Source: an uncultured Nitrospiraceae bacterium (GTDB taxonomy: Bacteria; Nitrospirota; Thermodesulfovibrionia; Thermodesulfovibrionales; Dissulfurispiraceae). Taken from it: a stretch of 64,000 nucleotides of DNA. The position numbers were made by a program, and so were the translations under genes. Of this stretch, positions 3,479 to 61,736 are shown in pieces. A model generated the notes under the pieces. That model saw only the letters and a list, made by a program, of their open reading frames with translations, made no database searches and was not told the origin of the DNA. The stretch is from NCBI GenBank assembly GCA_947085205.1, contig CAMTVO010000014.1:32001-96000 (forward strand), read 5' to 3'. Positions within the stretch are counted from its first letter, which is position 1, and each line of letters starts with the position of its first letter.

Positions 3479-4159
3479 CTACTTTGCCTTTTCCTCAAAA
3501 AGCTCTTCTTCCTGTTTGTCCTTCATCTTCTTGACAAGCTCTTCGTAGGAATCCCGCAGAATGATCTTATTAAATTGTGTCCTGTAATTGCTTACGAGGC
3601 TTACGCCTTCTATCACCACATCATATACTTCCCATTTGCCATTCTTTTTGAGGAGCCTGTAATGTATAGGTATTTCAACATTTCTCTTTGTGATTACCTT
3701 GCTTTTTACAACAGAGTATTCGCCCTCTATATCCTCACCCACATACAAAATCTTTTCGTCTTCATAGGCCTCAATCTTTTTAATATATGACCTTTCAAGA
3801 AGGTCGGCATATAACGGCACAAACTCTTTTCTTTCCTCTGGCGTCCTTTTTCTCCAATGAAGGGCGAGGGACCTCTTTGCCATTTCCTCAAAATCAAATC
3901 TCTCGGAAATAGTCTTGCGGATTGCAGTCCTTCGCTCCTTTGTTTTTTCCGGCTTCTTCAGTTCCTTGTTTCTTAAGATATCAAGAACCTTATCAACGGT
4001 CTGCTTTACCTGATTTGTAGGCTCACCAGCATAGGCATCAGAAGCAGTGAATAGTGAATAGTGAATAGTGAACAGCAGAAGCATAACGAGTAACGAGTAA
4101 TGAGTAACAAGTTTTTTGAAATCTGAAATCTGAAATCTGAAATCTGAAATTTTTCCCAT
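3479..4159 (-). CDS. mlaC: MlaC/Ttg2D phospholipid shuttle protein
   Basis: FDFEEMAKRSLALHW, WEVYDVVIEGVSLVSNYRTQF. Confidence 0.9.
   Translation of the reverse strand: MGKISDFRFQISDFKKLVTHYSLLVMLLLFTIHYSLFTASDAYAGEPTNQVKQTVDKVLDILRNKELKKPEKTKERRTAIRKTISERFDFEEMAKRSLALHWRKRTPEERKEFVPLYADLLERSYIKKIEAYEDEKILYVGEDIEGEYSVVKSKVITKRNVEIPIHYRLLKKNGKWEVYDVVIEGVSLVSNYRTQFNKIILRDSYEELVKKMKDKQEEELFEEKAK
4046..4151. repeat. Three consecutive heptamer arrays (AGTGAAT, TAACGAG, TGAAATC) encoding the MlaC signal peptide
   Basis: 4, 4 and 5 copies; encode ISDFRFQISDF, LVTHYSLLV and LFTIHYSLFT. Confidence 0.9.
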
Positions 4160-4169
4160 AATCGCCTCT

Positions 4170-5579
4170 CTATCTTATCTCTTTCAAATCCAATCCTGTT
4201 GCATACAAAAGATTTGCGAATGATATCCTATGATTATATATAGAGCGTAGATTATCTGCCTTCATCTGTGAGTAAGCTACCGCTGCATCAGCCACATCCT
4301 TTGCATCGCCTATCCCGAGGTCGAAGTTAGCCACTGCCGCAACAAGCCACTTCCTTGCATTTCTGTATGCCTTTTCTGTCTCTATGATATTCTTCCTTGC
4401 CTCTTCCAGATCGAGATATGCCTTTCTCACCTGAAACGGTATGGCATCGTCGGCGAATTTCTTCTTCTCCAGCAATTTATAATATTCAGCCTGAGCCTCC
4501 TTCACCCTTCCCCCTGTTATTCCGAAATCGATAGACCACTTAAGCCCCATAAATGCAGCGCTGTAGGCATGGTTAAAGTAATCGTAAATATACGGGTTAT
4601 CCACCTTATCCCTGTTTGTTGCACCTGCTACAGATGCCTTCAGTCCTACAAATAACTGAGGATAGTAGTTGCTCTTCTCCACACCGATAAGGGCATTCCT
4701 CGCATTCAAACCCTCTTTAAGCTGGATAAATTCAGGTCTGAGTTCCACAGCATTTTTCAAATAGTTATTCAGCTCCTCGGGGATTCTGCTTTCCGGCGTG
4801 AGAAAAGTGTCTGCAGTATCGAATTCGGTTCCTCTTGGAAACCCCATGCTTGTTACAAGGGCATCTGTTGCAAGGGCAATTCCCTTTTCTGCCTCGTTGA
4901 TGTTTTTGTCAACCGCTCCTAAAAATGTCCTGAGTTTGAATAGATTGAGTTCGTCCGCCCACGGAGAGTCTATTTCTATCTGTTTCTCCGCCTTTTTTAT
5001 CGATTCGACAAGTTCGTCCTTGACTTCCAGAGCAAGGTTTCGCATATCCTTTGCAAGGAGAAGGCCGTAATAAAGTTCCTTTGTTCTTAAAACTATATCA
5101 GATGTCTTCTTATCCACACCTGCCTTTGCCACTTTTATGCCGCTCGAGGCAGCCTCTCTATAACTGCTTATCTTGCCGAATGTGTATATGGGCTGGATTA
5201 ATGTGACCTCTGTACTGCCGAATATCCCGTTGACAGTTGTTCCTACAGATGTATTAACATTTGGGCTTATCTGCTCCCTCTTTGCCCTTGGAGACGGCCC
5301 TGTAATTGCGAGTACCTCTATCTGAGGATAGACTGCCGAGTCTGCCTGGAGCTTTTTTGACTTATACGCTTCCTCTTCGTATCGTGATTCGCCTATCTCG
5401 GGGCTGACCTCGATAGCCTTTTTTATGCACTGCTCGATATTTAAAACAATCTTTCCACTATCTTGAGCATATGCAGGAATGGCTAAATTAGTAGACAGTA
5501 AGCAGTAGACAGTAGACAGTAAAAAAAGAAAAATTTTTTTTGACTGCTGACTCCTGACTGCTGACTGCTGACACTTCAT
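4170..5579 (-). CDS. TolC-family outer membrane protein
   Basis: Signal peptide and two OEP repeats (YPQI...QPIYTFG; YYPQL...NLLYATG). Confidence 0.85.
   Translation of the reverse strand: MKCQQSAVRSQQSKKIFLFLLSTVYCLLSTNLAIPAYAQDSGKIVLNIEQCIKKAIEVSPEIGESRYEEEAYKSKKLQADSAVYPQIEVLAITGPSPRAKREQISPNVNTSVGTTVNGIFGSTEVTLIQPIYTFGKISSYREAASSGIKVAKAGVDKKTSDIVLRTKELYYGLLLAKDMRNLALEVKDELVESIKKAEKQIEIDSPWADELNLFKLRTFLGAVDKNINEAEKGIALATDALVTSMGFPRGTEFDTADTFLTPESRIPEELNNYLKNAVELRPEFIQLKEGLNARNALIGVEKSNYYPQLFVGLKASVAGATNRDKVDNPYIYDYFNHAYSAAFMGLKWSIDFGITGGRVKEAQAEYYKLLEKKKFADDAIPFQVRKAYLDLEEARKNIIETEKAYRNARKWLVAAVANFDLGIGDAKDVADAAVAYSQMKADNLRSIYNHRISFANLLYATGLDLKEIR
5490..5575. repeat. Heptamer arrays (AGTAGAC, TGACTGC) in the TolC N-terminus
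   Basis: Encode CQQSAVRSQQS and LLSTVYCLLST. Confidence 0.9.
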
Positions 5580-5588
5580 ACTTTCCTC

Positions 5589-6032
5589 CTAAACCTCACC
5601 GAATACATATTTTTGCAGCAATTCTTCTATATCAATAGCTGATTCTGTCTCCCTTATTTTACCGCCGTCCGAAATGATTTTTTCAGAACCGCCTGGTGTT
5701 ATCTGTAAATATTTTTCACCTATAAGTCCCTTTGTCTTTACAGATGCTATAGCATCCTCCTGCAGCTTGACACTGCTGTATATTGTTATTTCAACCAACG
5801 CCCCGTAGTCCTTGCTTAACCTTACGCCTTTTACCTTCCCTATATCAACACCTGCCATTTCAACCACTGCGCCAGGTTTAATCCCCCCTGCCTTTTCAAA
5901 TTCAGCATATACTGTATAACTGTTCTTCCCTATTATTTCAAGTTCACCAAGCTTTATGGATAAATAGCCGAGGGAGATAATACCTATTAAAACAAAGAAA
6001 CCGACAGCCAATTCTACGTCAATTTTTTTCAT
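5589..6032 (-). CDS. mlaD: MCE-domain protein MlaD
   Basis: GGIKPGAVVEMAGVDIGKV, TKGLIGEKYLQITPG. Confidence 0.92.
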   Translation of the reverse strand: MKKIDVELAVGFFVLIGIISLGYLSIKLGELEIIGKNSYTVYAEFEKAGGIKPGAVVEMAGVDIGKVKGVRLSKDYGALVEITIYSSVKLQEDAIASVKTKGLIGEKYLQITPGGSEKIISDGGKIRETESAIDIEELLQKYVFGEV

Positions 6033-6077
6033 AAACTCTCCTGCTTTGCCGGAATGCGGAAAATGCGGTTTCTTTAA

Positions 6078-6827
6078 TCAATCCATTACTCCTATTGGCC
6101 CCTCAATGCCGCCTGTTATAAACTGTCGTACCACCGGATTGTTTGACCTCTTAATTTCATCAGGAGTACCAGCATCTATTATAATGCCATTATACAACAT
6201 GGCAACACTGTTTGCTACCTCAAATATCTTCGGCACATCATGACTTATTACCACACCTGTATACCCATATTTTTCATGGGTGCTTGTTATAAGTTTCTGC
6301 ATAGAACTCGATAGAATCGGGTCAAGACCTGTGGTTGGCTCATCAAAAAGCACAATGGATGGCTCTGTAATAAGCGCCCTTGCAAGGGCGACCCTCTTTT
6401 TCATGCCTCCGCTCAGTTCTGCTGTGTACTTGTTCTCCACTCCTTTCAGACCAACATCAGCCAGTGCATGCATAACCCTATCCTGTATTTCCATCTTACT
6501 TAACCTTGTTTTTTCCATAAGTTGGAAAGCGACATTTCCATATACATTAAGGGAATCAAAAAGCGCACCTCCCTGAAAGAGCACTCCAAATTTTTCTCTT
6601 ATTATATCCAGCTCCTTTGGTTCAAGCCCTGTAATATCCACACCGTCAACTAACACCTTCCCCTTATCAGGCATGAGGAGACCTATAATATGTTTTATCA
6701 GCACACTTTTACCGCAGCCGCTCTTTCCCATTATGGTTATAATTTCTTTGTCATGGATTGTCAAATTTACACCCTTGAGGACTTCCTGACCGTTAAAAGA
6801 TTTATGAAGGTCAATGATTTCTATCAT
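6078..6827 (-). CDS. mlaF: ABC ATPase MlaF
   Basis: GKSGCGKS, FQGGALFDSL, LSGGMKKRVALARA, DEPTTGLDP. Confidence 0.92.
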   Translation of the reverse strand: MIEIIDLHKSFNGQEVLKGVNLTIHDKEIITIMGKSGCGKSVLIKHIIGLLMPDKGKVLVDGVDITGLEPKELDIIREKFGVLFQGGALFDSLNVYGNVAFQLMEKTRLSKMEIQDRVMHALADVGLKGVENKYTAELSGGMKKRVALARALITEPSIVLFDEPTTGLDPILSSSMQKLITSTHEKYGYTGVVISHDVPKIFEVANSVAMLYNGIIIDAGTPDEIKRSNNPVVRQFITGGIEGPIGVMD

Positions 6828-6836
6828 TTAATCCTC

Positions 6837-7607
6837 TCATAAAAGGACTGAGCCGAGGAAGTAATCCCAGACAAGGATTAATATGGATGATATCACTACA
6901 GCCTCTGTTGTGGCCTTGCTGACCCCTTCTGCGCCATAACCTGTATAAAAACCCTTATAGCAGCATACCCATGACACGATAACGCCGAAACTGAGGGATT
7001 TATAAAGTCCGATCATTACATCCTCCATATCCACATAATCCTTCATAAGCGAGAAATATGTTCCTGAATTAATCCCGAGTATCTCCACTCCCACCACATA
7101 TCCACCATATATGCCGATTACATCAAAAATGGCTGTAAGCAAGGGAAAGACTATTATGGCAGCAGCTATGCTTGGCACAATGAGATAACGCATGGGATTG
7201 AGTCCCATTGCTGTAAGGGCGTCTATCTGCTCGGTAATCCTCATCATGCCTATCTCTGCAGTCAATGCCGAACCTGCCCTGCCTGTAACCATCAGGGCAG
7301 AAAGGACAGGCCCCAATTCCCTGATAAGGCTGAGTGCAATGCCAGGACCTAATAATGCATCTGAGCCGAACTTTCTTAGGATATAATATAATTGCAGGGC
7401 GAGGACCATACCGGTAAAAGCGCCTGTAAGGAGAATTACAGCCATGGATTTATTTCCAAAGAATCTTATCTGCCTCAAAAGCAATTTGAATTTAAATGGT
7501 GGAATGAAGATAAAATAAAAGGAGTTTAACAGAAAGAGGAACATGTGGCCCATTCTTCTCAAGATTGAGAGTGCCCACGAACCTAATATCCTCAATAATT
7601 TTTCCAT
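6837..7607 (-). CDS. mlaE: ABC permease MlaE
   Basis: RELGPVLSALMVTGRAGSALTAEIGMMRITEQIDAL. Confidence 0.95.
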   Translation of the reverse strand: MEKLLRILGSWALSILRRMGHMFLFLLNSFYFIFIPPFKFKLLLRQIRFFGNKSMAVILLTGAFTGMVLALQLYYILRKFGSDALLGPGIALSLIRELGPVLSALMVTGRAGSALTAEIGMMRITEQIDALTAMGLNPMRYLIVPSIAAAIIVFPLLTAIFDVIGIYGGYVVGVEILGINSGTYFSLMKDYVDMEDVMIGLYKSLSFGVIVSWVCCYKGFYTGYGAEGVSKATTEAVVISSILILVWDYFLGSVLL

Positions 7608-7643
7608 TTAAATACACTTCCGTCCGTTTATTCTTAGCCTTTA

Positions 7644-7672
7644 ATAATAAAAAAAGCGCGTAGTGTTGTCAA
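7644..7672 (-). promoter_or_regulatory. Sigma70 promoter for mlaE
   Basis: TTGACA-17 nt-TATTAT on the minus strand. Confidence 0.7.
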
Positions 7673-7732
7673 TTAAATTTGCTTTAAAGCAATGACCTTT
7701 ATATCCAAAGTCAGTGGTAAGGGTTATAATTC

Positions 7733-7772
7733 GCTCATGGCTCATAGTTTTATAGTTTTTTGCTATGAGCCA
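7733..7772. repeat. GCTCATR / TATGAGC inverted heptamer pair overlapping the pyrD stop
   Basis: gctcatggctcatag ... ctatgagcca. Confidence 0.7.
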
Positions 7773-8701
7773 ATTTTCAGGCTTCCGATGATTTCATTAA
7801 TATCAGAAAGCCCTTCCTCTTTAAGAAATCTCTCAAGACCTTCTATTATTTCAATTGTTGCAGTAGGATTTACAAAATTAGCGGTTCCGACAGCAACAGC
7901 TTTTGCTCCTGCTATCAAGAATTCGAGGGCATCATTGGCGTCCATTATTCCGCCCATTCCGATAATCGGTATCTTTACAGCCTTATAGACTTCCCACACC
8001 ATCCTAACTGCAACAGGCCTGATTGCAGGTCCTGAAAGCCCACCGGTGACATTTGCAAGCGCCGGCTTGCGTTTTTTAATATCAACTACCATTCCGGTTA
8101 TTGTGTTTATCAAAGAAACCGCATCAGCGCCTGAATTTTCTGCAACTTTTGCCATAAATCCAACATTGGTAACATTAGGAGAGAGTTTTACTATCAGGGG
8201 GAGTTTTATTGCCTTCCTGACAGCAGTTACGGCCTGTTCCATTATTTTTGGGTCTGTGCCGAATACTATCCATCCTGCCTGCTTGTTCGGGCAAGAGATA
8301 TTCATTTCAAGGGCATGGACTCCTTCAGCGCTGCTTAATTCCTCTGCTGCCTGAACATATTCATCTATGCTGTCTCCAAAGAAATTTGCAATGACAGGAG
8401 TCTTGAACTTTTTCAGAAATGGGAGTTTCTCCTCTACGAAAGCCTTAACTCCTATATTCTGAAGACCAATGGCATTGAGCATTCCTGCTGGCGTTTCGAT
8501 AACCCTCGGTGTTGGATTTCCTTGTCTTGGCGCAACAGAAAGCCCCTTGACCACGATTGCGCCAAGCCTGCTTAAATCAAGAAATTCAGAATATTCCTCG
8601 CCATATCCGAATGTCCCTGATGCAGTCATCACAGGATTTTTGAGCCTTAATCCAGCGATGTCTATCTCAAGATTTATTTTCTTTTCTTTACTTAAATCCA
8701 T
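7763..8701 (-). CDS. pyrD: Dihydroorotate dehydrogenase B, catalytic subunit
   Basis: ASGTFGYG, NAIGLQN, NISCPN, KLSPNV, GGLSGPAI. Confidence 0.95.
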   Translation of the reverse strand: MDLSKEKKINLEIDIAGLRLKNPVMTASGTFGYGEEYSEFLDLSRLGAIVVKGLSVAPRQGNPTPRVIETPAGMLNAIGLQNIGVKAFVEEKLPFLKKFKTPVIANFFGDSIDEYVQAAEELSSAEGVHALEMNISCPNKQAGWIVFGTDPKIMEQAVTAVRKAIKLPLIVKLSPNVTNVGFMAKVAENSGADAVSLINTITGMVVDIKKRKPALANVTGGLSGPAIRPVAVRMVWEVYKAVKIPIIGMGGIMDANDALEFLIAGAKAVAVGTANFVNPTATIEIIEGLERFLKEEGLSDINEIIGSLKIGS

Positions 8702-10021: not shown

Positions 10022-10042
10022 TATCGATGCATCCCTTCTTTT

Positions 10043-10118
10043 GAAGTAGGAACTGAGAAGTAAAAACTGGGAAACAAAAGTTCCGTTTTCAACTTCTAAC
10101 TTCCAACTTCATACTTCT
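10043..10118. repeat. Inverted heptamer pair (GAAGTAR / YAACTTC) upstream of greA
   Basis: gaagtaggaactgagaagtaaaaactgg ... caacttctaacttccaacttcatacttc. Confidence 0.8.
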
Positions 10119-10165
10119 TAATAAAATAACACTTTTATAATGATTTTTTCAAAAAGGAAAGATTC

Positions 10166-12329: not shown

Positions 12330-12331
12330 GT

Positions 12332-14850: not shown

Positions 14851-15593
14851 CCAATCATGCCTGCCGGGTCCACCGGAATCCCGTTTTTCCTTAACTCGAA
14901 ATGAAGATGATGGCCTGTCGACCTTCCGGTTGAGCCTGACAGCGCAATTACTTTCCTTTCGTCTACGGTGTCTCCTGTTTTTACAAGATTTATTGAATTG
15001 TGCGCATAAAGACTGCTCAGTCCATTTTCATGTTCAACAATCACAGTGTTGCCGTAACCTGCTGAAAAACCGCTGAAAACAACCCTACCTGGCGCTGACG
15101 ATATTACCGGAGAGCCTTCCGGCATAGCTATATCCACTCCGTTATGGTGTTTAAGCCGTCCGTCGATAGGGTCGTGCCTTAGGCCATACCCTGAGGTTAT
15201 TTTAGCTTCCGCAGGAAGTCTCAACTTTAGTTCAGAGCTTAGAGTTACCCCCCAATTCCCCCCCTTAGTAATGAGGGGATTAGAGGGGGGGGTAATTGGC
15301 TCGTTACTACCGGAAAATGGAGTTCTCAAAAAGAAATCGCCTATGCCTATCCCTCTGTCTGCTAAGGATTTGGCCATTTCAGAGGTTATGTAAGGCATAT
15401 AAGTAGAAATAGTCCTGTCTTTACCGAAAGATGTCTGTTCCATCATTATCTTCAGGAACTCGTTCAAAAAAACGGTTTCCACCTGTTTTGCCATTGCCTT
15501 CGGGTCAGACGAGTTCTGAGTTCGGAGTTCGGAGTTGAGAGCTTTTAACTCCTGACCGCTGACCGCTGACTGCTGACTGCCGACTATCTTCAC
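14847..15593 (-). CDS. FlgJ-like rod-binding domain fused to an M23 peptidase
   Basis: Follows flgI; AKQVETVFLNEFLK N-terminal domain; HNGVD and STGHHLHFE M23 motifs. Confidence 0.8.
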   Translation of the reverse strand: MKIVGSQQSAVSGQELKALNSELRTQNSSDPKAMAKQVETVFLNEFLKIMMEQTSFGKDRTISTYMPYITSEMAKSLADRGIGIGDFFLRTPFSGSNEPITPPSNPLITKGGNWGVTLSSELKLRLPAEAKITSGYGLRHDPIDGRLKHHNGVDIAMPEGSPVISSAPGRVVFSGFSAGYGNTVIVEHENGLSSLYAHNSINLVKTGDTVDERKVIALSGSTGRSTGHHLHFELRKNGIPVDPAGMIG

Positions 15594-16729
15594 ATTATCA
15601 CCAATTCTGCCTTCAAGCTTCCGGCAGCTTTAATTGCTTGCAATATCGCCACCATATCCTTGGGTGTTACGCCTAAGACATTAAACGCTTTAACCAGTTC
15701 ACCGATTGTTGCCCCTTTCACCTCCACCATGGGCGCCTTTTTCTCCTCTGCCTTTATTTCTACTTTTGGGACAATTACTGTTTCAGCTGTGGGAGGGGCA
15801 AAAGGAGGAGGTTGAACAACCTCGTATTCAACCTTAATCTCTATGGCAAGTCCCCCATGCGCAAGGGCGATTGGACTGATTTTTACATTTTCACCTATGA
15901 CAACTGTACCTGTCCTCTCATTGATAACAACCCTTGCAGGCATATCCACATCTACATTTATAAGTTCGATTTTCGACATCAAATCAACTACCCTGTTTGT
16001 ATAGGTATCCGGAACTTTTATGGAAATAACCGAAGGGCCTTCAGCCTTAGCGAAACTTCCACCGAGAATGTCGTTTATTCCATCGGTTATTTTCTTGGCA
16101 GTCGTAATGTCCTGAACGGTCAATAAAAGGTCTAATCTCTGTTTCTCGTTTAACTGCACAGGGACCTCTTTTTCGACAATAGCGCCATTAGGGATAGCGC
16201 CGACATTCGGATGATTCTTGATTACCTGTGCACCTGTTCCACCAGCCACAAATCCGCCAATAGATACAGGGCCTTGTGCAACAGCATAAACATTACCATC
16301 TGGCCCCTTTAGAGGCGCCATTAAAAGCGTCCCACCCTGAAGGCTCTTTGCATCGCCGATGGACGATACCTGAACGTCGACCTTAGAGCCCGGCTTTACC
16401 ATTGTAGGCAGTTTTGCAGTAACTATTACCGCAGCTATGTTCTTTGTCTTTCCCTTTATATCTGCGGCATTCACGCTGATTCCCATTCTTGTAAGCATAT
16501 TTGCAAACGGCTGGAATATGTATGTCCCGTCCTTATCGCCGGTGCCGTTGAGTCCGACAACAATTCCGTATCCGATAAGTTCGTTCTCCCTTATTCCGGA
16601 AAATGCGGCGATATCCTTAATCCTCTCGGCATGAACGACAGTGAACAGTGAACAGTTAATAGTGAATAGTAAAAAACAGAAAAAAACAGTTCGTTGCATT
16701 TTTTTAAGATACTCAGTTTTCCGGTTCAT
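15590..16729 (-). CDS. flgI: P-ring protein FlgI
   Basis: RIKDI, GYGIVVGLNGTGD, GDAKSLQGGTLL. Confidence 0.97.
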   Translation of the reverse strand: MNRKTEYLKKMQRTVFFCFLLFTINCSLFTVVHAERIKDIAAFSGIRENELIGYGIVVGLNGTGDKDGTYIFQPFANMLTRMGISVNAADIKGKTKNIAAVIVTAKLPTMVKPGSKVDVQVSSIGDAKSLQGGTLLMAPLKGPDGNVYAVAQGPVSIGGFVAGGTGAQVIKNHPNVGAIPNGAIVEKEVPVQLNEKQRLDLLLTVQDITTAKKITDGINDILGGSFAKAEGPSVISIKVPDTYTNRVVDLMSKIELINVDVDMPARVVINERTGTVVIGENVKISPIALAHGGLAIEIKVEYEVVQPPPFAPPTAETVIVPKVEIKAEEKKAPMVEVKGATIGELVKAFNVLGVTPKDMVAILQAIKAAGSLKAELVIM

Positions 16730-16784
16730 CCCTTATACTCCTTTCTATTACTGTTCACTAAGCACTTTACACTATTCACTGCCG

Positions 16785-17513
16785 TTAAAACGGCCATACC
16801 TTGTCCAAAAATCTCACAAGCCAGCCCTGCGACTGCTTGTCATCCAAAACACCGTCGCCGACAAAGTATATCTGGGCGTCTGCTATATACTGTGACAGGA
16901 CTGTATTATTCGGCGATATATCATCAGGCCTCACAATGCCCTTCAATACGAGTATCTCTTTTTCATTGTTCACGACTACCTCTTTTCTCGACTCGAGCAC
17001 CAGATTGGAATTGGGCAGAACCTCCACAACCTTTGCCGTTACAGTGCCTGTAAGTTTTCCCTCTCTCGTGGTATCGCCTTTTCCTTTAAAGTCAGACTTC
17101 CCCTTTCCCTCGACAGACGGAGAAAACACATTTGCCCCTTTGTAAAATCCGCCTAACATAGGGAGTTTATCTACGCCAAAGTCAGTATTCATCCCAAAAA
17201 AATTGTCCAGTCCGTAATCAGCGGATGAATCACGGCTGGCATTGGTGGTAGCCTTTTTAGAAGCGGTCGATTTTTCATTGATTAATATTGTCACAAGGTC
17301 ATTTACCCTCTTAGCCCTTCTGTCCTCAAAAAGCGAAGCGCTGTCCTTCCATAAAGAACCTTCTGATGAGGATGCCTCTTTTTCCTTTGTTTCGACATAT
17401 CTCGGCGGCATAGGAGCATTTTTTATATCGCGCGCGTCCTTGAGACCGGAACAACCAATTAATACAGTGAACAGTGAACAGTGAACAGTGAACAGTAATA
17501 TAGTGCGAATCAT
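16785..17513 (-). CDS. flgH: L-ring lipoprotein FlgH
   Basis: Lipobox LIGC, VVEVLPNSNL, GIVRPDDI, C-terminal WPF. Confidence 0.95.
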   Translation of the reverse strand: MIRTILLFTVHCSLFTVLIGCSGLKDARDIKNAPMPPRYVETKEKEASSSEGSLWKDSASLFEDRRAKRVNDLVTILINEKSTASKKATTNASRDSSADYGLDNFFGMNTDFGVDKLPMLGGFYKGANVFSPSVEGKGKSDFKGKGDTTREGKLTGTVTAKVVEVLPNSNLVLESRKEVVVNNEKEILVLKGIVRPDDISPNNTVLSQYIADAQIYFVGDGVLDDKQSQGWLVRFLDKVWPF

Positions 17514-18265
17514 ATCTTTACCCTCACTGTATCAGGCGATGTAAGAATTCCGCTCACCTCTTTTTTGGACACATCGCATGAAACCTTTGCCGTACCGCCC
17601 ATTACGGCGTCATTTTTGAGCGATCCCTGAGTTGTTATAACCACGTTGCCTCCTTCGACCACAACATTAACCCTCTGTCCCCTTTTAATGCTCAACTGGG
17701 TTGTTAGATGATCGCTCCTTAAAATAACCCCTTGTCCTATGTTCGTCTTAAGCGCTTTTCCTTCCAAATCGTTCATGCTCAACACTGCGCCTGCCGGCAG
17801 TCTCGAACTCTTCTGCTTTACGATATAAAAATCGTCAGCGCTCAGCGTAGTTCCTTTTACAAGAGGCCTTGAGGTTATGAACACATCCACAAGCACATTG
17901 TAAGATGCTTCGACAATTATACTTTTCGTCTCAATCTTCCTGTTTTTAAGACCGACTGAAAAATGAGCCTTATTGCGTCCTGCATATCCGTTCATAACTG
18001 CATTGGCAACCGTATACCCATCCGGGCTTTTTAAGACATCCGCCCCTGAGATTACTCTCAGTCCATTAACTTCGACATCTCCTGAAACAGACTTCTTCAG
18101 TTCATTCAATACTGCCTTTTTAACCGCATCCATCAATTCGACTTGAGCATAGGACTCGGTTATAGTAAGCAGTAAGCAGTAAGCAGTAAGCAGTAATATA
18201 GCAACAAGTAACGAATAACGAGTTTTTTGACTTCCGACTCTTGATGCTTGACGCTCGACGCTCAT
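17510..18265 (-). CDS. flgA: P-ring chaperone FlgA
   Basis: SAF-like domain with IKRGQRV; located between flgG and flgH. Confidence 0.85.
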   Translation of the reverse strand: MSVERQASRVGSQKTRYSLLVAILLLTAYCLLLTITESYAQVELMDAVKKAVLNELKKSVSGDVEVNGLRVISGADVLKSPDGYTVANAVMNGYAGRNKAHFSVGLKNRKIETKSIIVEASYNVLVDVFITSRPLVKGTTLSADDFYIVKQKSSRLPAGAVLSMNDLEGKALKTNIGQGVILRSDHLTTQLSIKRGQRVNVVVEGGNVVITTQGSLKNDAVMGGTAKVSCDVSKKEVSGILTSPDTVRVKI

Positions 18266-42247: not shown

Positions 42248-42517
42248 TCACCTCACATACATCGGTATGTTCTCGAATATGCTCCTCGTAAATCCGACCA
42301 GCACCTTAACCATCCAGGGCAGCGCCACCAGCAGCGTCACAAAAACTGCTATTATCTTAGGCACAAAGGTCATAGTCATCTCCTGAAGCTGTGTGATTGC
42401 CTGAAAAATGCTTATCACCATTCCGACAATAAGGCTGACAAGCAATACAGGGCCTCCGACCAGCAGGATAGTCTCGAAGGTCTGCCTTGATACCTGATTT
42501 AATAATTCCATTGTCAT
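42248..42517 (-). CDS. fliQ: FliQ
   Basis: QAITQLQEMTMTFVPK; start at 42517 overlaps the fliP stop (ATGA). Confidence 0.95.
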   Translation of the reverse strand: MTMELLNQVSRQTFETILLVGGPVLLVSLIVGMVISIFQAITQLQEMTMTFVPKIIAVFVTLLVALPWMVKVLVGFTRSIFENIPMYVR

Positions 42518-43608
42518 CTGACGAACCCTCCGATAAGCGAACCTATCAATAAATCCCATCCGTCCACAAGTACGAACAGGAGCAATTTAAAGGGCATGGA
42601 AATCATAATGGGCGGAAGCATCATCATACCCATCGAAAGAAGGATACTCGCTACAATCATATCGATTACAAGAAATGGAAGAAAAATAAGAAAGCCTATT
42701 TCGAATGCCCTTTTCAGTTCTCCTATGGAGAATGCCGGAATAACAACCCTCATTGGAAGATCCATCGGTGTTGCAGGCCTCTCAAGCTTCGACATCCTTA
42801 AAAAAAGCGCAAGGTCTTTTTCCCTCGTCTGCTTCAGCATGAACTCCTTCAAGGGGACTCCGGCCCTGTTAAGCGCCTCCTCAGCATTTATCTGCTTTTT
42901 TGTATAAGGCTGGTAGGCATCGGTGTAGATTCTGTCTACAACCGGAGACATGATAAAAAGGGTAATAAAAAGCGACAGGCCTATTATTACCTGTGTGGGA
43001 GGAACCTGCGGTGTTCCGAGCGCCTGCCTAAGAAACGAGAGCACAACCACTATCCTTGTAAAACATGTAGTCATAACAAGAATTGCAGGCAGTATGGAAA
43101 TCAGCGTAAGAAACAAAAGGAGTTCGAGCGGAGTCGTTAATCCCAAAAAGCTGCCGCCCGCAGGCGGAGGCGGAGCAGGAGCGGCAAAAGAGAAAGAAGG
43201 CAATAGGCAATAGGCGATAGGCAGAAAAGTAACGAGTAACGAGTACCGGGTAACGAGTTTTTTCAAATTTTGAATCTTTGATTTAAAATCTTTTATTCCT
43301 GACTCCTGACTCCTGACTCCTAACTCTTGCTTTAAAGCTTCTTCCACGTCCGATGGGTTAGGCTTGCTGAGAAGGGATATGCTTTCATCCGCAACGCCCA
43401 ATACAAGATATTCTTTTAAGACCTTGACTATTGCAACTCCCTTTTTAGGACCAAAAGGCTGGTATTGAATAATTTCTATCATTCCCTTTTGGGGTAATAT
43501 CCTCTGTTTCAAAAATCTCAGAAGCAGATACAGACCCCCTAAAACTATCAAAAGTGCAAGTGTAACTTTTATTAATTCAATGCCCAAGTTTTCCTCCCAA
43601 TACTCCAT
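42514..43608 (-). CDS. fliP: FliO-FliP fusion with a repeat-derived linker
   Basis: aa 1-95 FliO-like (TM, GPKKGVAIVKV..YLVLGV); C-terminal FliP (FTRIVVVL, MGMMMLPP, LVDGW). Confidence 0.9.
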   Translation of the reverse strand: MEYWEENLGIELIKVTLALLIVLGGLYLLLRFLKQRILPQKGMIEIIQYQPFGPKKGVAIVKVLKEYLVLGVADESISLLSKPNPSDVEEALKQELGVRSQESGIKDFKSKIQNLKKLVTRYSLLVTFLPIAYCLLPSFSFAAPAPPPPAGGSFLGLTTPLELLLFLTLISILPAILVMTTCFTRIVVVLSFLRQALGTPQVPPTQVIIGLSLFITLFIMSPVVDRIYTDAYQPYTKKQINAEEALNRAGVPLKEFMLKQTREKDLALFLRMSKLERPATPMDLPMRVVIPAFSIGELKRAFEIGFLIFLPFLVIDMIVASILLSMGMMMLPPIMISMPFKLLLFVLVDGWDLLIGSLIGGFVR

Positions 43609-50943: not shown

Positions 50944-51477
50944 CTACTGGGAAGTTTTTTCCTGCAGAACTTTCCCTTTTATAAGGAGCTTTTTTGAAAG
51001 TGATGCAGCTATGTCGCTTTCAATTTGGGCGAGTATCTTGCCTGCAATTTTAGGTTTGAGGGAATTAAGTATTATTACCGCTGTATCTTCGTCGAGTTTC
51101 TCTAATCTTCTTGCAGCCTCTTCAGACGGCATCGACTCGTACATCTTTGCAACTTTGAGCAGGCCTTCCTGAATCTTAATATCTAAAGCCTTCTGCGCTT
51201 CTTCTATCTCCTTTTTCAGTTTTTTATATTCCTCGATTTTCTTTTGAATGTCATCCCTGAGCACCTTCAGTCTTTCCTCCTCCAGAGACTTCTGCGGAAA
51301 TTGTATGGTTTGTTGCTGCTGCTTTTGCTGAGGAGGCTGCTGAGCATGAACCAAAGAGTGAAGAGTGAACAGTGAAAAGTGAAGAGTGAACAAAAAAATA
51401 ATAATGGATAACGAGCAAGAATCGCCGAGTCTATCCAGGAAATTAGAAATATGTTTACTCCTCAACTCATAACTCAT
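50944..51477 (-). CDS. MotE/FlbB/YlxF-like protein (MgtE N-terminal-like domain)
   Basis: Signal or TM segment, coiled coil, KMYESMPSEEAARRL...KIAGKIL; follows fliJ. Confidence 0.75.
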   Translation of the reverse strand: MSYELRSKHISNFLDRLGDSCSLSIIIFLFTLHFSLFTLHSLVHAQQPPQQKQQQQTIQFPQKSLEEERLKVLRDDIQKKIEEYKKLKKEIEEAQKALDIKIQEGLLKVAKMYESMPSEEAARRLEKLDEDTAVIILNSLKPKIAGKILAQIESDIAASLSKKLLIKGKVLQEKTSQ

Positions 51478-51914
51478 AACTGCCTCTTTCTATGGTGTCC
51501 TGTAGCAGCATGCTCGTCTGTCCTTATCTGCTCCTTCCTCTTAGACTCTTTTTTAGACGCAGACTTTTGTTTTTCATCAAGCTTCTCGAATATCTTTTTC
51601 TCTTTTGATGCCTCAACCAGATGCTTCCTTGCATTCTCTACCTGTTTCTCTTTTTCTGAAATAACCTTTTTCTGATGCTGTATCTTAATCAATAAATGTT
51701 CCAGATATTCGCTCAGCTTTTTTATCTCTTCAATATTAACCAACTCATCAGTGCTGCACTCTAATTTTTTGCCGGTTAAATTGTACTTATCTTCCAAGTC
51801 ATAAAGCCTTTTTTCTTCTGCTGCAAGCTCTTTGAGGAGTATTGCAAAGCGGTTTTTTGCCTCATCCTCCTTCCACCTCTTGAGGTTTAAAAGACTTTTA
51901 AGCGGAGTCCGCAT
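51474..51914 (-). CDS. fliJ: Export chaperone FliJ
   Basis: LKSLLNLKRWKED, KIFEKL, EQIRTDE; start set at the ATG at 51914. Confidence 0.85.
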   Translation of the reverse strand: MRTPLKSLLNLKRWKEDEAKNRFAILLKELAAEEKRLYDLEDKYNLTGKKLECSTDELVNIEEIKKLSEYLEHLLIKIQHQKKVISEKEKQVENARKHLVEASKEKKIFEKLDEKQKSASKKESKRKEQIRTDEHAATGHHRKRQL

Positions 51915-54809: not shown

Positions 54810-54813
54810 TGCG

Positions 54814-56331: not shown

Positions 56332-56335
56332 TATC

Positions 56336-56629
56336 TTATACCTGCATCCTCATTATTTCTTCGTAGGCAGTGAGCAGCTTGTTTCTCACCTGAAGCAGGG
56401 TCTGCAATGATACATCAGCCTTTTCCATCTCAATCACTACTGTATGAATGTCCTTTACCTCTCCCTTTGCAAAATTATGAATAGCCTTTTCAGCCTCGTT
56501 CTGTATCTCTGATACCTCTTTCAATGCGCCTTTAATCGCATCCTCAAAGGACGCGCCGCTTTTACCGGCTGCTTTTGAAGACTGTGCGATGCCCTGAGTT
56601 ATATCCCCTATTTTCTTTATATCGTCCAT
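56336..56629 (-). CDS. fliE: FliE
   Basis: VRNKLLTAYEEIMRMQV. Confidence 0.96.
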   Translation of the reverse strand: MDDIKKIGDITQGIAQSSKAAGKSGASFEDAIKGALKEVSEIQNEAEKAIHNFAKGEVKDIHTVVIEMEKADVSLQTLLQVRNKLLTAYEEIMRMQV

Positions 56630-56647
56630 AATAACACCTCCCTAAAA

Positions 56648-56727
56648 CGTGATGTGTGAAGCGTAATCCGTGATGAGTTAAAGTAATAAATTTTTTACTC
56701 ATTACTAATCACGCATTACGGATTACG
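56648..56727. repeat. Inverted CGTRATG / CATTACG array pair between flgC and fliE
   Basis: cgtgatgtgtgaagcgtaatccgtgatg ... ttactcattactaatcacgcattacggattacg. Confidence 0.85.
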
Positions 56728-56729
56728 AT

Positions 56730-57137
56730 TTACACTTTCGTTATTTCCAGTGTCTTCATAAACATTTCTTTATACGAATTAATAATGGTTAAGTTAGCTT
56801 CATACGCCCTTGTGGCGGCTATAAGGTTAACGGTTTCCTCTATTGTGTTGATATTCGGATAACTGACATATCCGTTTTTATCCGCGTCGGGATGCGACGG
56901 GTCATGGACCATCCTAAAAGGCCTTTGGTCCTCTACAATCTTAGGTATATTGACGCCTACGGCACTCTCGTTAAATAAGTACGACTCAAAAACCACATCC
57001 TTTCTCCTGTAAGGCCCGCCTTCAGGAGTCCGCGTGGAGTTTACATTGGCGATGTTTGAAGCTATGACATTCATTCTTATCTTCTGAGCCTCGAGGGCTG
57101 TTGCGCTAATCTTCAGTGGCATAAACATTTCCTTCAT
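56730..57137 (-). CDS. flgC: Rod protein FlgC
   Basis: NIANVNSTR, GGPYRRK, DPSHPDAD, RAYEAN; GGAGG lies upstream of 57137. Confidence 0.96.
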   Translation of the reverse strand: MKEMFMPLKISATALEAQKIRMNVIASNIANVNSTRTPEGGPYRRKDVVFESYLFNESAVGVNIPKIVEDQRPFRMVHDPSHPDADKNGYVSYPNINTIEETVNLIAATRAYEANLTIINSYKEMFMKTLEITKV

Positions 57138-57180
57138 AACAACCTCCATCTGTGTTTTTAACTTAATACTCCAATCCTTC

Positions 57181-57528
57181 TTACCTGCCTCCTTTTATCA
57201 CATCCTTAATCATCCTCATTTTCTTTGTCATCAACTGGGTTGCGGCATTGTATATTAATGTATTTTCCGCAACCTTTGCCATCTCAATGTCAAGATTTAC
57301 GGTATTTCCGTCCCTGTTGGGCATGGTAGTAACAGTTTCGTAAATTTCATAGTCATGCCCTTTGCCTATTGCCTCCTCTACAGCTTTGTTAAGCTCTCTC
57401 TGAAAAGATATATCCTTTGCTTTATACCCAGGCGTGTCGGCATTGGCTATATTTGATGCAAGCACCTTCTGTCTGAATGCCGCCACATCCATCATCTTTT
57501 CAAGAACCTTCATGGTATTGTCAGGCAT
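57181..57528 (-). CDS. flgB: Rod protein FlgB
   Basis: NIANADTPGYK, DGNTVNLDIE; exact start uncertain (57528 or 57513). Confidence 0.93.
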   Translation of the reverse strand: MPDNTMKVLEKMMDVAAFRQKVLASNIANADTPGYKAKDISFQRELNKAVEEAIGKGHDYEIYETVTTMPNRDGNTVNLDIEMAKVAENTLIYNAATQLMTKKMRMIKDVIKGGR

Positions 57529-57540
57529 ATGACCCTCCTG

Positions 57541-57556
57541 TGCAATTTTCATTCCA
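57541..57556 (-). promoter_or_regulatory. Sigma54 promoter for flgB
   Basis: TGGAAT-GAAAA-TTGCA. Confidence 0.7.
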
Positions 57557-57613
57557 GATTTACCTTTTGTAACCGTTCACCAGCCTCACCTGAAATGGCA
57601 TAGTAAACGCTTA

Positions 57614-58930
57614 CTACCTTTTTATGTCATCGTCCGAAATGTTATATTCCTTTATCTTGTTCCGTATCGTCCTGACGCTTATGCCGAGCAACTGAGCCGT
57701 TTTTGTCCTGTTGCCGCCGGTTTCACGGAGCGTATTGATAATCAGGTCCATCTCCATATTCTTCATCCTGCTCTGGCTGCCTATACCGCTTAACTCTAAA
57801 CTCTGAACCCCTAACTCTAAACTCTTATCTCTGAACTCCTCAGCCGGAGGCAGTAGAACCTCAGAGCGCAATATTACGGCTGTTCTGTAAAGGAAATTTT
57901 CGAGTTCCCTTACATTGCCATCCCAGCTCTTCTTCTTGATATACGACTGAAGCTCCTCAGAAATCTGAAACACCTTTCCCATCTTTTGGGATAATTTCTT
58001 TATAAAAAATTCCGCCAGCGGTATTATGTCTTCACTCCTCTCCCTCAAAGGAGGCAGCCTTATCGGAAATACATTCAGGCGATAATAGAGGTCTTCCCTG
58101 AATTTCCCATTTTTGACCTGTGATAAAAGGTCTTTGTTTGTGGTGGCGATAATTCTTACATCCACAGGAACAGGAGAGCGCCCTCCTATCCTGTCAATCT
58201 CCCTCTCCTGTATAGCCCTGAGGAGTTTTGCCTGAAGATGAAATGCCATCTCGCTTATCTCATCGAGCAGGAGCGTGCCTTTGTCCGCAAGCTCGAATTT
58301 CCCGAGCCGCCTGTCCGCTGCGCCCGTAAAGGCTCCCTTTTCATGGCCGAACAACTCTGCCTCAAGCAGGCTTTCCGATATGGCAGCGCAATTTATAGCG
58401 ACAAAGGGTTTGTCTGCCCTCAGGCTGTTTTTATGGATAATCCTTGCAACAACCTCCTTGCCTGTACCGCTTTCTCCTGATAACAGTACAGTTATATCGC
58501 TCTTTGCCACTTCCCTTATTATGGACATCAGGTGTTTCATTGCAGTAGATTCTGCGACTATATCCGCCTCCTCCGACGGTAGCATCCTGTCGATAACCCA
58601 TTTAAGCGATTCGAATGAAAACGGCTTCATTATATAATCGGTCGCTCCAAGTTTCATGGCATCTACGGCATTTTCTACCGTCCCGTAGCCTGTTATCACA
58701 ATTACAGGAACGAATATCCCTTTTTTCCTTATCTCCTGAAGAAACTCTATGCCGTTCATCTTAGGCATCTTCATGTCTGTTATTATGAGAGAGAAGTCCG
58801 AGAGGTTAAGCTCCGACAGCACATCCACCGGATTGTGGTACACGGCAGGCTTAAAGCCAAACCTCTTCAACGACTCCTTTATCGCCAGAGCCATGTCCAC
58901 TTCATCGTCAACTATTAAAACCTGTTTCAC
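57614..58930 (-). CDS. Sigma54-dependent response regulator (FleR/FlrC-like)
   Basis: Receiver domain, [14 protein letters not shown], Fis-type HTH; upstream of flgB. Confidence 0.9.
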   Translation of the reverse strand: MKQVLIVDDEVDMALAIKESLKRFGFKPAVYHNPVDVLSELNLSDFSLIITDMKMPKMNGIEFLQEIRKKGIFVPVIVITGYGTVENAVDAMKLGATDYIMKPFSFESLKWVIDRMLPSEEADIVAESTAMKHLMSIIREVAKSDITVLLSGESGTGKEVVARIIHKNSLRADKPFVAINCAAISESLLEAELFGHEKGAFTGAADRRLGKFELADKGTLLLDEISEMAFHLQAKLLRAIQEREIDRIGGRSPVPVDVRIIATTNKDLLSQVKNGKFREDLYYRLNVFPIRLPPLRERSEDIIPLAEFFIKKLSQKMGKVFQISEELQSYIKKKSWDGNVRELENFLYRTAVILRSEVLLPPAEEFRDKSLELGVQSLELSGIGSQSRMKNMEMDLIINTLRETGGNRTKTAQLLGISVRTIRNKIKEYNISDDDIKR

Positions 58931-58960
58931 CTTAAAATACCTCTTTCCCCCTCCCCCTCG

Positions 58961-60097
58961 CTATAACGCTTTACGCTCTACGCTCAACGGCAGTTTAATA
59001 ACAAACTCCGTCCCTTTCCCGACCTCGCTTACAACATCTATTGTTCCTCTATGAGCCTTTATTATACCTGCGGTTATCGACATTCCGAGACCTGTGCCCC
59101 TGTCCTTTGTAGAAAAGAAGGGCTCGAACATCCTCCGCCTCGTATCTTCATCCATACCGCTGCCTATATCACGTATATAAATCCCAACTTCCCCTGACTT
59201 CTGACTTCTGACTTCTGACTTCTGCACCAAGATTTCTATCTTCCCTCCATCCGGCATTGCGTGAACAGAGTTGAGCAGCATGTTTATAAGCGCCTGTCTC
59301 ATAAGTCCCTTATCTACATACAACCAGCGCTTTTCATCCTCGCTGAGAGAAAGCTGTATATCGCTGTTTGCAAACAGTTCCTTAAACTCATTGCAGGTTT
59401 CCCTGATTAAATCATTTAAGCAATAATACTCAAGTTTCGGTTTTATTTCTTTGGTAAACCTGAGCATATTATCGAGCGTATTGACAAGCGCCCTCACAGA
59501 GTTTGATATTCTGTTTGCGTAGTCGCCGTACTCTGTAGCTTTCAGGTCATTAGAAAGAAGACTCGCAAAAAGCTCTATGCTGCCGAGCGGATTTCTTATC
59601 TCGTGGGCAATCTTCATAACAAGCTCTCCCATTGCGGTCAGTCTCCTGTTCCGCTCATTCTCCGACTCAAGCTGTTTAAGCCTCGTAATATCTTTGAATA
59701 TCAGCACATGGCCAATGATATTTCCAGATTTGTCCTTCACATCCGACCGGGATACGAGGGCATAAAATGGCTTGCCGTTATGCGGCGCTATTACATCTTC
59801 ATGGATTTCTGCTTGTATAGAAGCGCCGCCTATTACATCATCGGCATTAATGCCTAAAAGACTGCTTGCCGCATCATTTATAATCCTTATTACTCCATCC
59901 CTGTCAAAAAATACCACACCGACGTCAATGCTATCGAGAATACTGTTGAGCAACTGTTTTTTGTGTTCAACCTCTTCGGTCAGCAAGCGGACATTATCTT
60001 CAAGCGCGCTGTAATACTGTACAAGCGTGGCAGACGCTGAATTAAAGGTCTCTATCGCCTTATTTAAGAGATCTACATTCTGGTCGCTTTTTGTCAT
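58961..60097 (-). CDS. Cytoplasmic PAS histidine kinase (FleS/FlrB-like)
   Basis: PAS domain, AHEIRNPL, FEPFFSTK, GTGLG; start set at the ATG at 60097. Confidence 0.9.
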   Translation of the reverse strand: MTKSDQNVDLLNKAIETFNSASATLVQYYSALEDNVRLLTEEVEHKKQLLNSILDSIDVGVVFFDRDGVIRIINDAASSLLGINADDVIGGASIQAEIHEDVIAPHNGKPFYALVSRSDVKDKSGNIIGHVLIFKDITRLKQLESENERNRRLTAMGELVMKIAHEIRNPLGSIELFASLLSNDLKATEYGDYANRISNSVRALVNTLDNMLRFTKEIKPKLEYYCLNDLIRETCNEFKELFANSDIQLSLSEDEKRWLYVDKGLMRQALINMLLNSVHAMPDGGKIEILVQKSEVRSQKSGEVGIYIRDIGSGMDEDTRRRMFEPFFSTKDRGTGLGMSITAGIIKAHRGTIDVVSEVGKGTEFVIKLPLSVERKAL

Positions 60098-60104
60098 AAA
60101 TAAA

Positions 60105-61736
60105 TTACTTTCCCCCCGAAATAATTGCCGCAGCCTCTGCAATCTCTTCGCCTCCGCTTTCAGCCTTTTTCAGATAATCTCTGTTTTTGGCAAGCTTTCC
60201 GTACTGGTACTGTGCCCATTGAAGACTCTTAGGATCTTTTACATCATAGTCCAGCGCTCTTTTGTAATAAGTCTTTGCCTTTGCATAATCCCTCGATATA
60301 TACAGGCAATCTCCTGCCTTTACCGAAGACAGTCCGTCTCCCCTGTCGGATGCCGCAATATAATATCTCATCGCGCTCCGCTTGTCCCCTGTCTTCCAGT
60401 ATAAGTCGCCGAGTTTTGCGGCAATTCTGTAGTCCTTTGCAGCCTTTACAATCTTTGTAAGATATTCTCTTGCAGGCGCATATTTTCCCTGCCTTTCCAT
60501 GATGTCCGCAATCATATATGAAGCCCTGTATAAATAACGGCTGTCGAGGGTAAGAGGAGTAAGAATCTTCTCCGCCTCAGAATACTTGCCTTCCGTTATC
60601 AGCATCTCCGACATGTACAGAGATGCATCTCCCTTTAAAGAACCTTTTAATGCCTTTCTGAGCAGAAGCGCCCCCTCAATTTTTTTGCCGTTTGTTATTA
60701 AGTAACGGGAAGCGTCCAAAATAAAAGGAGCGTCTGCATCGAGATATGGGGCGAATTTTTTAACATACTCTACGGCGTTCGGATCCTTCAAACTTATAAT
60801 GCCCTTAAGCCTTTTTTCTATCTCCGCAGACCTCAGTTTCACGCTCTTTAAATAGGAAAGATATTTCATCGCATTATTAGCATCGCCCTTTTTGTCGTAC
60901 AAAGATACAATCCTCAGTTTGAATTCATCTCCCGGTTCGTAAGGAGACAATTGCAGACCAAGCCTCAAAGCATCGTCCAGCTTTCCTTCTGTTTCATAAA
61001 TATTCATTAAGACCTTCTGTGTCCTAAGCCTTTCGATGCTCGAAACCGGTTTGTCTATTATATTTTTACAAATTCTTTCTGCTTCCTTGAATTTCCGAGC
61101 ATTAAAAAAAATCTGAACCTTATCAACTCTGAAGTCGCTTTCCTTTAAAACCAAATCAGGAATTTTATTAATAGTATTTATTGCTTCTTTTGCAAATCCT
61201 TTCCAGCTATAAACCATTGCCAGTGCATAAAGAGCGCGGTGGTCTGTTTCCAGCATCCTCTTGGGCAGCCCTGCCAAAAGGGACTCTGCTCTCGCAATAT
61301 CGGCTCTTTTTAAAGCCGCTTCTGCCTTTCCGATATCCGCCTTTTCTTTCATGGCAGTTCCGACAGTCTCGAAGTGCTGTTCTGCCTCTTTTATTTTCTG
61401 CAAGTGCAAAGAGATATAGCCAAGCAAAAGATGCGCCTCATCCCTGTATTCCGGTATCTGGGACAAAGAAACAAAGCGATTGAGATTCTGGCGCGCCTCG
61501 TAGTAATTTTTCAGATAGTAATCGGACTTTCCCATCCCGAACAATGCCTTTTCCGACAGAGCGCTTTTAGGGGCCGAGAGAAAGACATCCCTGTAAGTTT
61601 CTTTTGCCTTTAGATAATTTTTTGCCTTTAGATGCCCTTCCGCTGTTTTTATCTTGTCTTCCGAGGCAAAGGCTGAAGTAAGCAGTAAGCAATAGGCAAT
61701 AGGCAGTAAGCAGTAAAAAAACAGTTTTTTATTCAT
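60105..61736 (-). CDS. Secreted TPR-repeat protein
   Basis: Signal peptide ending in AFA; TPR-like helices. Confidence 0.8.
   Translation of the reverse strand: MNKKLFFYCLLPIAYCLLLTSAFASEDKIKTAEGHLKAKNYLKAKETYRDVFLSAPKSALSEKALFGMGKSDYYLKNYYEARQNLNRFVSLSQIPEYRDEAHLLLGYISLHLQKIKEAEQHFETVGTAMKEKADIGKAEAALKRADIARAESLLAGLPKRMLETDHRALYALAMVYSWKGFAKEAINTINKIPDLVLKESDFRVDKVQIFFNARKFKEAERICKNIIDKPVSSIERLRTQKVLMNIYETEGKLDDALRLGLQLSPYEPGDEFKLRIVSLYDKKGDANNAMKYLSYLKSVKLRSAEIEKRLKGIISLKDPNAVEYVKKFAPYLDADAPFILDASRYLITNGKKIEGALLLRKALKGSLKGDASLYMSEMLITEGKYSEAEKILTPLTLDSRYLYRASYMIADIMERQGKYAPAREYLTKIVKAAKDYRIAAKLGDLYWKTGDKRSAMRYYIAASDRGDGLSSVKAGDCLYISRDYAKAKTYYKRALDYDVKDPKSLQWAQYQYGKLAKNRDYLKKAESGGEEIAEAAAIISGGK

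Follow-up and report, generated by a model that had tools for sequence, protein, structure and literature searches.

Heptamer repeat arrays form the hydrophobic cores of predicted signal peptides in an uncultured Nitrospiraceae bacterium

Introduction

In the stretch of DNA analysed here (the window; 64,000 nucleotides, positions 32,001 to 96,000 of contig CAMTVO010000014.1, genome assembly GCA_947085205.1 of an uncultured Nitrospiraceae bacterium), eight genes, for MlaC, TolC, FlgI, FlgH, FlgA, FliP, a MotE-like protein and a tetratricopeptide repeat (TPR) protein, have a hydrophobic segment written in tandem 7-nt repeats. The question raised is how one kind of simple repeat came to spell such segments in unrelated genes. 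Heptamer arrays make up the cores in seven predicted signal peptides and in one internal signal-like segment; in our judgement they probably replaced older cores, likely represent the arms of hairpin elements and are likely kept as export signals. The array pattern is real and non-random. It belongs to a repeat invasion that affects the whole genome, and arose as a by-product of that invasion, not as a dedicated export device.

Heptamer arrays at eight sites

Arrays of period 7 were detected by Tandem Repeats Finder (TRF) at all eight sites, those of the hydrophobic cores having 4-6 units, and the peptides quoted in the initial annotation are encoded in frame by minus-strand open reading frames (ORFs) of all eight genes. 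TRF together with ORF translation confirmed the position and frame of every array described in that annotation (8/8). The names MlaC, TolC/OEP, FlgI, FlgH, FlgA, FliP and TPR are backed by NCBIfam or Pfam. "MotE-like" is the name given in the initial annotation, because the gene product showed only a weak match to MgtE_N (PF03448, E 7.6e-6); its orthologues also have signal-like N-termini. The genes and arrays are as follows (n-region, N-terminal part of the signal; h-region, hydrophobic core; fold z, folding compared with shuffled sequences, negative when better).

3479..4159, minus: MlaC gene (PF05494); its signal peptide holds three different heptamer arrays.
4117..4150, minus: ATTTCAG array, 4.9 perfect copies, MlaC n-region (ISDFRFQISDF; TRF, translation).
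4084..4112, minus: GTTACTC array, opening the hydrophobic stretch of MlaC (LVTHYSLLV; TRF, translation).
4046..4072, minus: CTATTCA array, MlaC h-region, without complementary partner (TRF, translation; fold z +2.1).
4170..5579, minus: TolC-family outer-membrane efflux gene (PF02321).
5541..5572, minus: purine-rich arm forming the TolC n-region (QQSAVRSQQS; TRF, translation, fold).
5490..5523, minus: pyrimidine-rich arm forming the TolC h-region, pairing with 5541-5572 (TRF; fold z -3.5).
15590..16729, minus: FlgI gene (NF003676).
16638..16670, minus: pyrimidine-rich arm, CTGTTCA/CTATTCA, forming the FlgI h-region (TRF, translation).
16745..16781, minus: degenerate purine-rich arm directly 3' of the flgH stop, pairing with 16638-16670 (TRF; fold z -3.1).
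16785..17513, minus: FlgH lipoprotein gene (NCBIfam/Pfam).
17464..17496, minus: perfect solitary CTGTTCA array forming the FlgH h-region, ending three codons 5' of the lipobox Cys; no hairpin (TRF, translation).
17510..18265, minus: FlgA gene (TIGR03170, PF13144).
18164..18196, minus: perfect CTGCTTA-type array forming the FlgA h-region (TRF, translation).
18236..18262, minus: purine-rich array, FlgA n-region, not complementary to the h-region array (TRF; fold z 0.2).
42514..43608, minus: FliO-FliP fusion gene, with arrays in the linker and in an internal signal-like segment (NCBIfam/Pfam).
43198..43258, minus: two pyrimidine-rich arrays forming the internal hydrophobic segment before SFA-A of FliP (TRF rows 43198-43223 and 43228-43258).
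43297..43326, minus: purine-rich array in the FliO-FliP linker (GVRSQES; TRF).
50944..51477, minus: gene for an MgtE_N-like (MotE-like) predicted exported protein (weak PF03448 match).
51354..51390, minus: pyrimidine-rich array forming the h-region of the MotE-like protein (TRF, translation).
51464..51481, minus: short purine-rich array across the start codon of the MotE-like gene (MSYEL; TRF, translation).
60105..61736, minus: TPR protein gene (NCBIfam/Pfam).
61677..61716, minus: solitary mixed-unit array forming the TPR h-region (TRF, translation).

Seven of the eight proteins show a basic n-region, a hydrophobic h-region and an AxA motif or lipobox, and were predicted by inspection and a custom heuristic to carry a Sec signal. 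The proteins have no N-terminal hydrophobic segment besides the repeat-encoded one, and their export is predicted from sequence. The initial annotation took the arrays at all eight sites as signal peptides, which holds for the seven N-terminal cases but not for FliP, where the array lies at about residues 118-138 and not at the N-terminus because ORF 42514-43608 is a FliO-FliP fusion. FliO-FliP is a single ORF in 11 relatives too, repeat-poor ones included, and the fused forms retain the internal hydrophobic segment with an AxA-like end, whether repeats are present or not. Depending on the protein, the repeat accounts for part to most of the hydrophobic core at the eight sites. An A-rich spacer, rather than the purine-rich arm, is often the source of the basic n-region residues, and in FlgI, FlgH and the TPR protein the purine-rich arm is absent inside the ORF.

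The reading of these arrays as peptide depends on the start codons. A Shine-Dalgarno-like motif precedes six of the seven N-terminal ATGs, no ATG is present between array and predicted cleavage site in any of the seven, and the start context of FlgH is kept in close relatives. Because of these three observations, the objection that the true starts lie downstream of the arrays does not apply. N-termini of this kind resemble low-complexity junk, and should be treated with care in annotation: a start caller based on coding statistics removed the signals of FlgH, FlgA and the MotE-like gene.

A genome-wide family of heptamer arrays

The 1.89-Mb genome yielded 547 TRF rows of period 7, as compared with 39 and 40 in two order-4 Markov simulations. 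After merging, 555 arrays of period 7 or 14 remained, representing 187 units and typically 3-5 copies long. By a custom gene caller, 242 arrays were located inside genes, 94 at N-termini, 35 at C-termini and 184 in intergenic regions. Different genes and lineages carry different units, the same units recur across unrelated genes and genomes, and the 187 units form a network of near neighbours.

Translation of the units supported the initial annotation in that hydrophobic heptapeptides are read from the pyrimidine-rich strand and polar ones from its purine-rich complement. Adjacent arrays were ordered purine-rich then pyrimidine-rich 68 times and in the reverse order 8 times, and the units were complementary in at least 5 of 7 letters in 48/68 of the purine-then-pyrimidine pairs versus 475/2000 random pairs. 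The family layout is thus a purine-rich arm, a spacer and a pyrimidine-rich arm. Since this layout is identical when read from either strand, the polar arm always precedes the hydrophobic arm.

Several further features of the repeats were noted. Arrays of period 8, too, exceed expectation (205 TRF rows versus 54-63 simulated). In-frame arrays occur within the window in proteins without Sec signals (8825-8851, 8994-9020, 15511-15585, 57792-57840 and 59194-59224), namely a PyrK-like protein, FlgJ/M23, an NtrC-like regulator and a histidine kinase, three of these names being given by sequence inspection only; both arrays of the PyrK-like gene have their pyrimidine-rich side on the coding strand. 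In an ATP synthase b subunit encoded elsewhere in the genome (L198:301-984, G000 C11), the normal membrane anchor is preceded by a long N-terminal extension, in which repeats encode a signal-like hydrophobic stretch with VFA at its end. At about 45600-45890, 50215-50850 and 58100-58350 of the window many foreign contigs stack and stop, pointing to other dispersed repeats or conserved stretches, and 493 bases at 47961-48453 are absent from the contig of a related organism (run X6).

Concentration of pyrimidine-rich arrays in signal cores

The distribution of arrays was determined with a custom hydrophobicity-based heuristic, which called 290 of 1840 genes exported. An array was found in 33/290 predicted signals, a proportion with an inflated denominator because a random sample of the calls held many false positives. 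About thirty unrelated proteins have heptamer-encoded predicted signal cores, and the array usually ends 0-8 codons before the predicted cleavage site. The density of pyrimidine-rich arrays was 1.31 per kb in predicted signals and 1.63 in their last 20 codons. The corresponding values were 0.03 for the N-terminal 30 codons of cytoplasmic proteins, 0 for the 45 codons that open the mature part and 0.07 for internal membrane helices, where 4 arrays, two of them signal-like, were present in 57 kb. Intergenic DNA contained 0.98 pyrimidine-rich or purine-rich arrays per kb for both orientations together (about 0.5 each), and in short gaps between co-directional genes the density was 1.67 per kb over all classes, of which the pyrimidine-rich class accounted for 0.5. 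At a TRF score of at least 50, the density was 0.93 per kb in signals versus 0.08 in intergenic regions, while well-preserved arrays were also common in other coding DNA. Stop-free hydrophobic units made up 24/31 in signals versus 39/140 in intergenic regions, a test that is partly circular.

Hydrophobic, T-rich DNA alone was ruled out as the cause. Codon-shuffled array-free signal tails gave arrays in 17/8920 cases, as compared with 28 pyrimidine-rich arrays in the 290 real tails, and the internal helices contain only the 4 arrays noted above.

Since the heuristic itself relies on hydrophobicity, genes were also labelled independently of the arrays, according to the Pfam or NCBIfam family of the downstream domain. 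Among 73 genes with N-terminal arrays, 60 have a clear purine-rich or pyrimidine-rich array inside the ORF, and 13 were dropped. With exported and cytoplasmic labels assigned by our own reading of the family names, the 42 genes with a pyrimidine-rich array included 21 exported, 10 cytoplasmic and 11 unclear, whereas the 18 with a purine-rich array only included 0 exported, 14 cytoplasmic and 4 unclear (Fisher p 1e-5). In three of the ten cytoplasmic cases the array probably lies upstream of the true start. The exported group includes the BamA, LptA, SurA, TolB, secretin, TonB receptor, DacA and amidase families.

Signal arrays were less degenerate than intergenic arrays (p 0.008), and 12/31 were perfect. 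Such a state might reflect phase variation, in which slippage would switch export genes on and off as in Neisseria opa; a 7-nt unit does shift the frame, and opa supplies the precedent. The arrays are, however, only 4-6 units long, all eight ORFs of the window are in frame, and purine-rich coding arrays are about equally often perfect (59/172). The targets also include the BamA, LptA, SurA and TolB families, loss of which is usually lethal or severe. Phase variation is very unlikely in our view. When contigs of seven runs, run X6 being used twice, were compared with window positions 3300-18400 and 42400-62000, no 7-nt indel in a signal array was present among the matches listed, contigs being assemblies that drop rare variants.

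Export signals in relatives

By its named relatives, the bacterium belongs to Nitrospirota, close to Thermodesulfovibrionales/Dissulfurispiraceae. Six of the proteins served as queries against forty genomes of the same family and order, and TolC and FlgH were read at the same loci. Genomes with at least 5 matches to a degenerate unit pattern or its reverse were classified as repeat-bearing. An array 5' of the mature part was present in 34/80 orthologues in repeat-bearing genomes versus 3/103 in the others (6 rows skipped), a comparison in which pattern count and signal arrays partly depend on each other and related genomes do not represent independent cases. The signal array of the TPR protein was found in none of 16 relatives. 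In flgA of genome G006 (L176/L188), matches occur in two frames, away from the signal array.

Array-free orthologues carry ordinary, usually shorter signals, indicating that export is older than the repeats. The initial annotation had inferred that unrelated genes acquired their export signals from repeat DNA. In favour of such a gain of export anew, the repeat does spell the core, and the order of the arms fits that of n-region and h-region. Array-free orthologues of all eight proteins, however, have ordinary signals or, in the fused FliP, the same internal segment; those readable in repeat-poor relatives contradict the proposal directly, and these protein families are exported throughout bacteria. 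We consider export gained anew hardly credible; from the sequences compared, the repeats likely replaced and lengthened existing signals. The exchange of units can be seen in FlgI, where mature proteins of 88-90% identity follow three different units (L227, L228 and L229/L262).

Arms, partners and hairpins

Better folding than in shuffled sequences was observed for TolC (z -3.5, 0/200 shuffles as good) and FlgI (z -3.1) and, weakly, for the MotE-like gene (z -2.4), but not for the MlaC, FlgH, FlgA, FliP and TPR regions. A hairpin in every signal was thereby ruled out for five of the eight. Genome-wide, a partner arm within 184 bases was detected for 8/29 signal arrays. The initial annotation had described an inverted pair that mimics n-region plus h-region; the order purine-rich then pyrimidine-rich stands (68 versus 8), while a complementary pair is the minority case, at these 8/29 signals.

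The partner arm of FlgI is located upstream of the start codon, so that the pair flanks the ribosome-binding site and start of flgI. Across genomes, the upstream arm and the signal arm at the flgH-flgI junction change unit together. In a permutation test on 35 junctions, the own partner ranked first or second at 11/15 array-bearing junctions (p <1e-4) and at 4/20 others (p 0.02). The same matched-arm result was obtained on 22 flgH-flgI junctions, and at least 9 of the 35 loci come from genomes shared with that set. Both the enclosed ribosome-binding site and the co-variation of the arms would be expected of regulatory mRNA hairpins, kept for control of initiation or for RNase III processing of envelope genes. 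The flgI hairpin is absent, however, from repeat-poor relatives with the same operon, and five of the eight regions fold no better than shuffles. A regulatory role is quite improbable as the reason for the arm pairs.

The remaining 21/29 signal arrays are solitary. Arrays of this type could have grown or turned over in place, by slippage or by microhomology-based conversion from other copies in the T-rich DNA of the h-region, the arms being re-matched by template switching without any cassette. T makes up 37% of the signal tails that lack arrays, two or three unrelated arrays occur together in several signals, and the near-neighbour network of the 187 units is also in line with such a process. 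On the other hand, internal helices of equal hydrophobicity, though more constrained, contain 0.07 arrays per kb, the same units are found in unrelated genes and genomes, and the FlgI arm of genome G007 belongs to a complete arm-gene-arm unit. In-place turnover as the general explanation appears rather unlikely but is a serious rival, and it may act alongside insertion, for example for the solitary arrays.

Four-helix-bundle cassettes

The arm-gene-arm unit of G007 consists of a gene for a four-helix-bundle protein (PF05635) located between the flgH-flgI arms, with its stop overlapping the flgI ATG. The right arm of this cassette is the FlgI h-region, and an N gap lies inside the left arm. The layout of the repeat family, purine-rich arm, spacer and pyrimidine-rich arm, also brackets PF05635 genes at other places. 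Among 31 four-helix-bundle loci examined, 22 were usable (4 gave no match and 5 were partial), and arrays were present on both sides at 15/22, as compared with 48/1803 genes of this genome. At 11 four-helix-bundle loci the best partner was the own downstream side. The genome analysed here has full-length copies at G000 C65:950-1343 and C23:26276-26581 (L029, L030), both located between inverted arrays. In the four-helix-bundle loci of relatives (L090-L118) the period of the flanking array is 6, 7, 8 or 9; a hexamer right arm forms the h-region of an NHL-propeller protein in L109, and a heptamer arm lies in the n-region of an NHL-propeller family protein in L111. The cassettes examined are located between protein-coding genes and not in 23S ribosomal RNA (rRNA). 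A PF05635 gene was present in 15/17 pattern-positive and 11/24 other genomes, a weak association among kin that are not independent. No PF05635 ORF was detected at the eight sites of the window, and no GxxExxY/PDDEXK_3 partner gene (PF13366) in this 90%-complete genome.

A tentative extension, which we hold possible but rather less than probable, is that the heptamer-armed four-helix-bundle cassettes are mobile elements pre-adapted as signal peptides, with a polar left arm, an A-rich loop holding the start codon and a hydrophobic right arm, and that they repeatedly overwrote the signals by which envelope proteins, including essential ones, are exported. If this is true, signal cores would be the densest long-term store of heptamer repeats, signal peptides would have an element-driven route of turnover, and an orphan protein family would be tied to the heptamer excess of bacterial genomes.

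A proposed origin of the signal cores

For the replacement of older cores by element arms, the following course may be proposed. Small hairpin elements would land, or be remodelled, at gene junctions with a start codon between the arms; because the start codon can lie there, the right arm is read as an N-terminal peptide. The cargo gene or the left arm would be lost later. Selection would then act as a filter, in which stop-free hydrophobic units survive in signal cores and polar ones in n-regions and loops, with few surviving in folded domains or membrane helices. Signal arrays would be held by a ratchet, since loss of a 7-nt unit shifts the frame and loss of the array removes the core, while intergenic arrays would decay.

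Several observations weigh against this proposal. The four-helix-bundle gene at flgH-flgI was found in G007 only, and in none of the 36 loci of the junction survey described above; a four-helix-bundle gene is also carried by 11/24 repeat-poor genomes. No mobilising enzyme, target-site duplication or pair of empty and filled alleles has been shown. The 21 signal arrays without detectable partner include the perfect, young-looking ones of FlgH, FlgA and MlaC, which a simply decaying cassette does not explain well. With signals called by our own heuristic, there is some circularity in the density and unit tests. Finally, the FlgI tree has good support at 3/24 inner branches and the MlaC tree is likewise mostly poorly supported; because of the poor FlgI tree, independent gains can be neither counted nor separated from in-place turnover.

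Even so, replacement of older signal cores by heptamer arrays remains the reading that we hold probable. It implies that selfish repeat DNA can take over essential protein targeting many times per genome, and that one unit can be exchanged for another between relatives whose mature proteins still share about 90% identity. Some of the heptamer arrays abundant in bacterial genomes would also be given an origin that can be tested.

Comparison with known systems

Small palindromic or heptamer elements lying in frame in coding genes are known as the Rickettsia palindromic elements and the cyanobacterial STRR/SDR repeats. These are long conserved elements or mainly intergenic repeats, and we know of no report of a bias toward signal cores for either. 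In a literature search with limited coverage of subscription journals and without supplements, neither heptamer-encoded signal peptides nor a cassette outside rRNA was described.

An enrichment of short repeats close to the ends of proteins has been attributed to tolerance (PMC3315296), in an account that does not contain the term 'signal peptide'. Dispersed heptamer repeats occur in Beggiatoaceae, cyanobacteria, Bacteroidetes and Xanthomonas (PMC4679880, PMC4692102); the term 'signal peptide' is absent from the text of PMC4679880, the only one of the two searched for it. As far as described in the parts consulted, these systems share with ours the genome-wide 7-nt arrays of about four units, the filtering of orientation by stop codons and, in Xanthomonas, the convergent inverted pairs. 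They are, however, mostly intergenic and of one unit, whereas about two thirds of the arrays described here are in coding DNA.

The intervening sequence in the 23S rRNA of Coxiella burnetii contains, according to the sections seen, an S23p ORF with tandem heptamers upstream (PMC4990558). As in our cassettes, a PF05635 ORF is located in the loop of terminal inverted repeats. The Coxiella element, however, is part of an rRNA, from which RNase III excises it, while the present cassettes are flanked by protein genes and one of their arms is read as peptide.

In Neisseria opa, as far as the portions consulted describe it, a CTCTT coding repeat in the leader peptide serves as an on/off switch (PMC3960869, PMC3899988). 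The likeness is that a signal peptide is partly encoded by tandem units whose length is not divisible by three. In contrast to opa, where one gene family carries one pentamer as a switch, about 30 unrelated genes are involved here, with many heptamer units in 4-6 copies and with essential genes among the targets.

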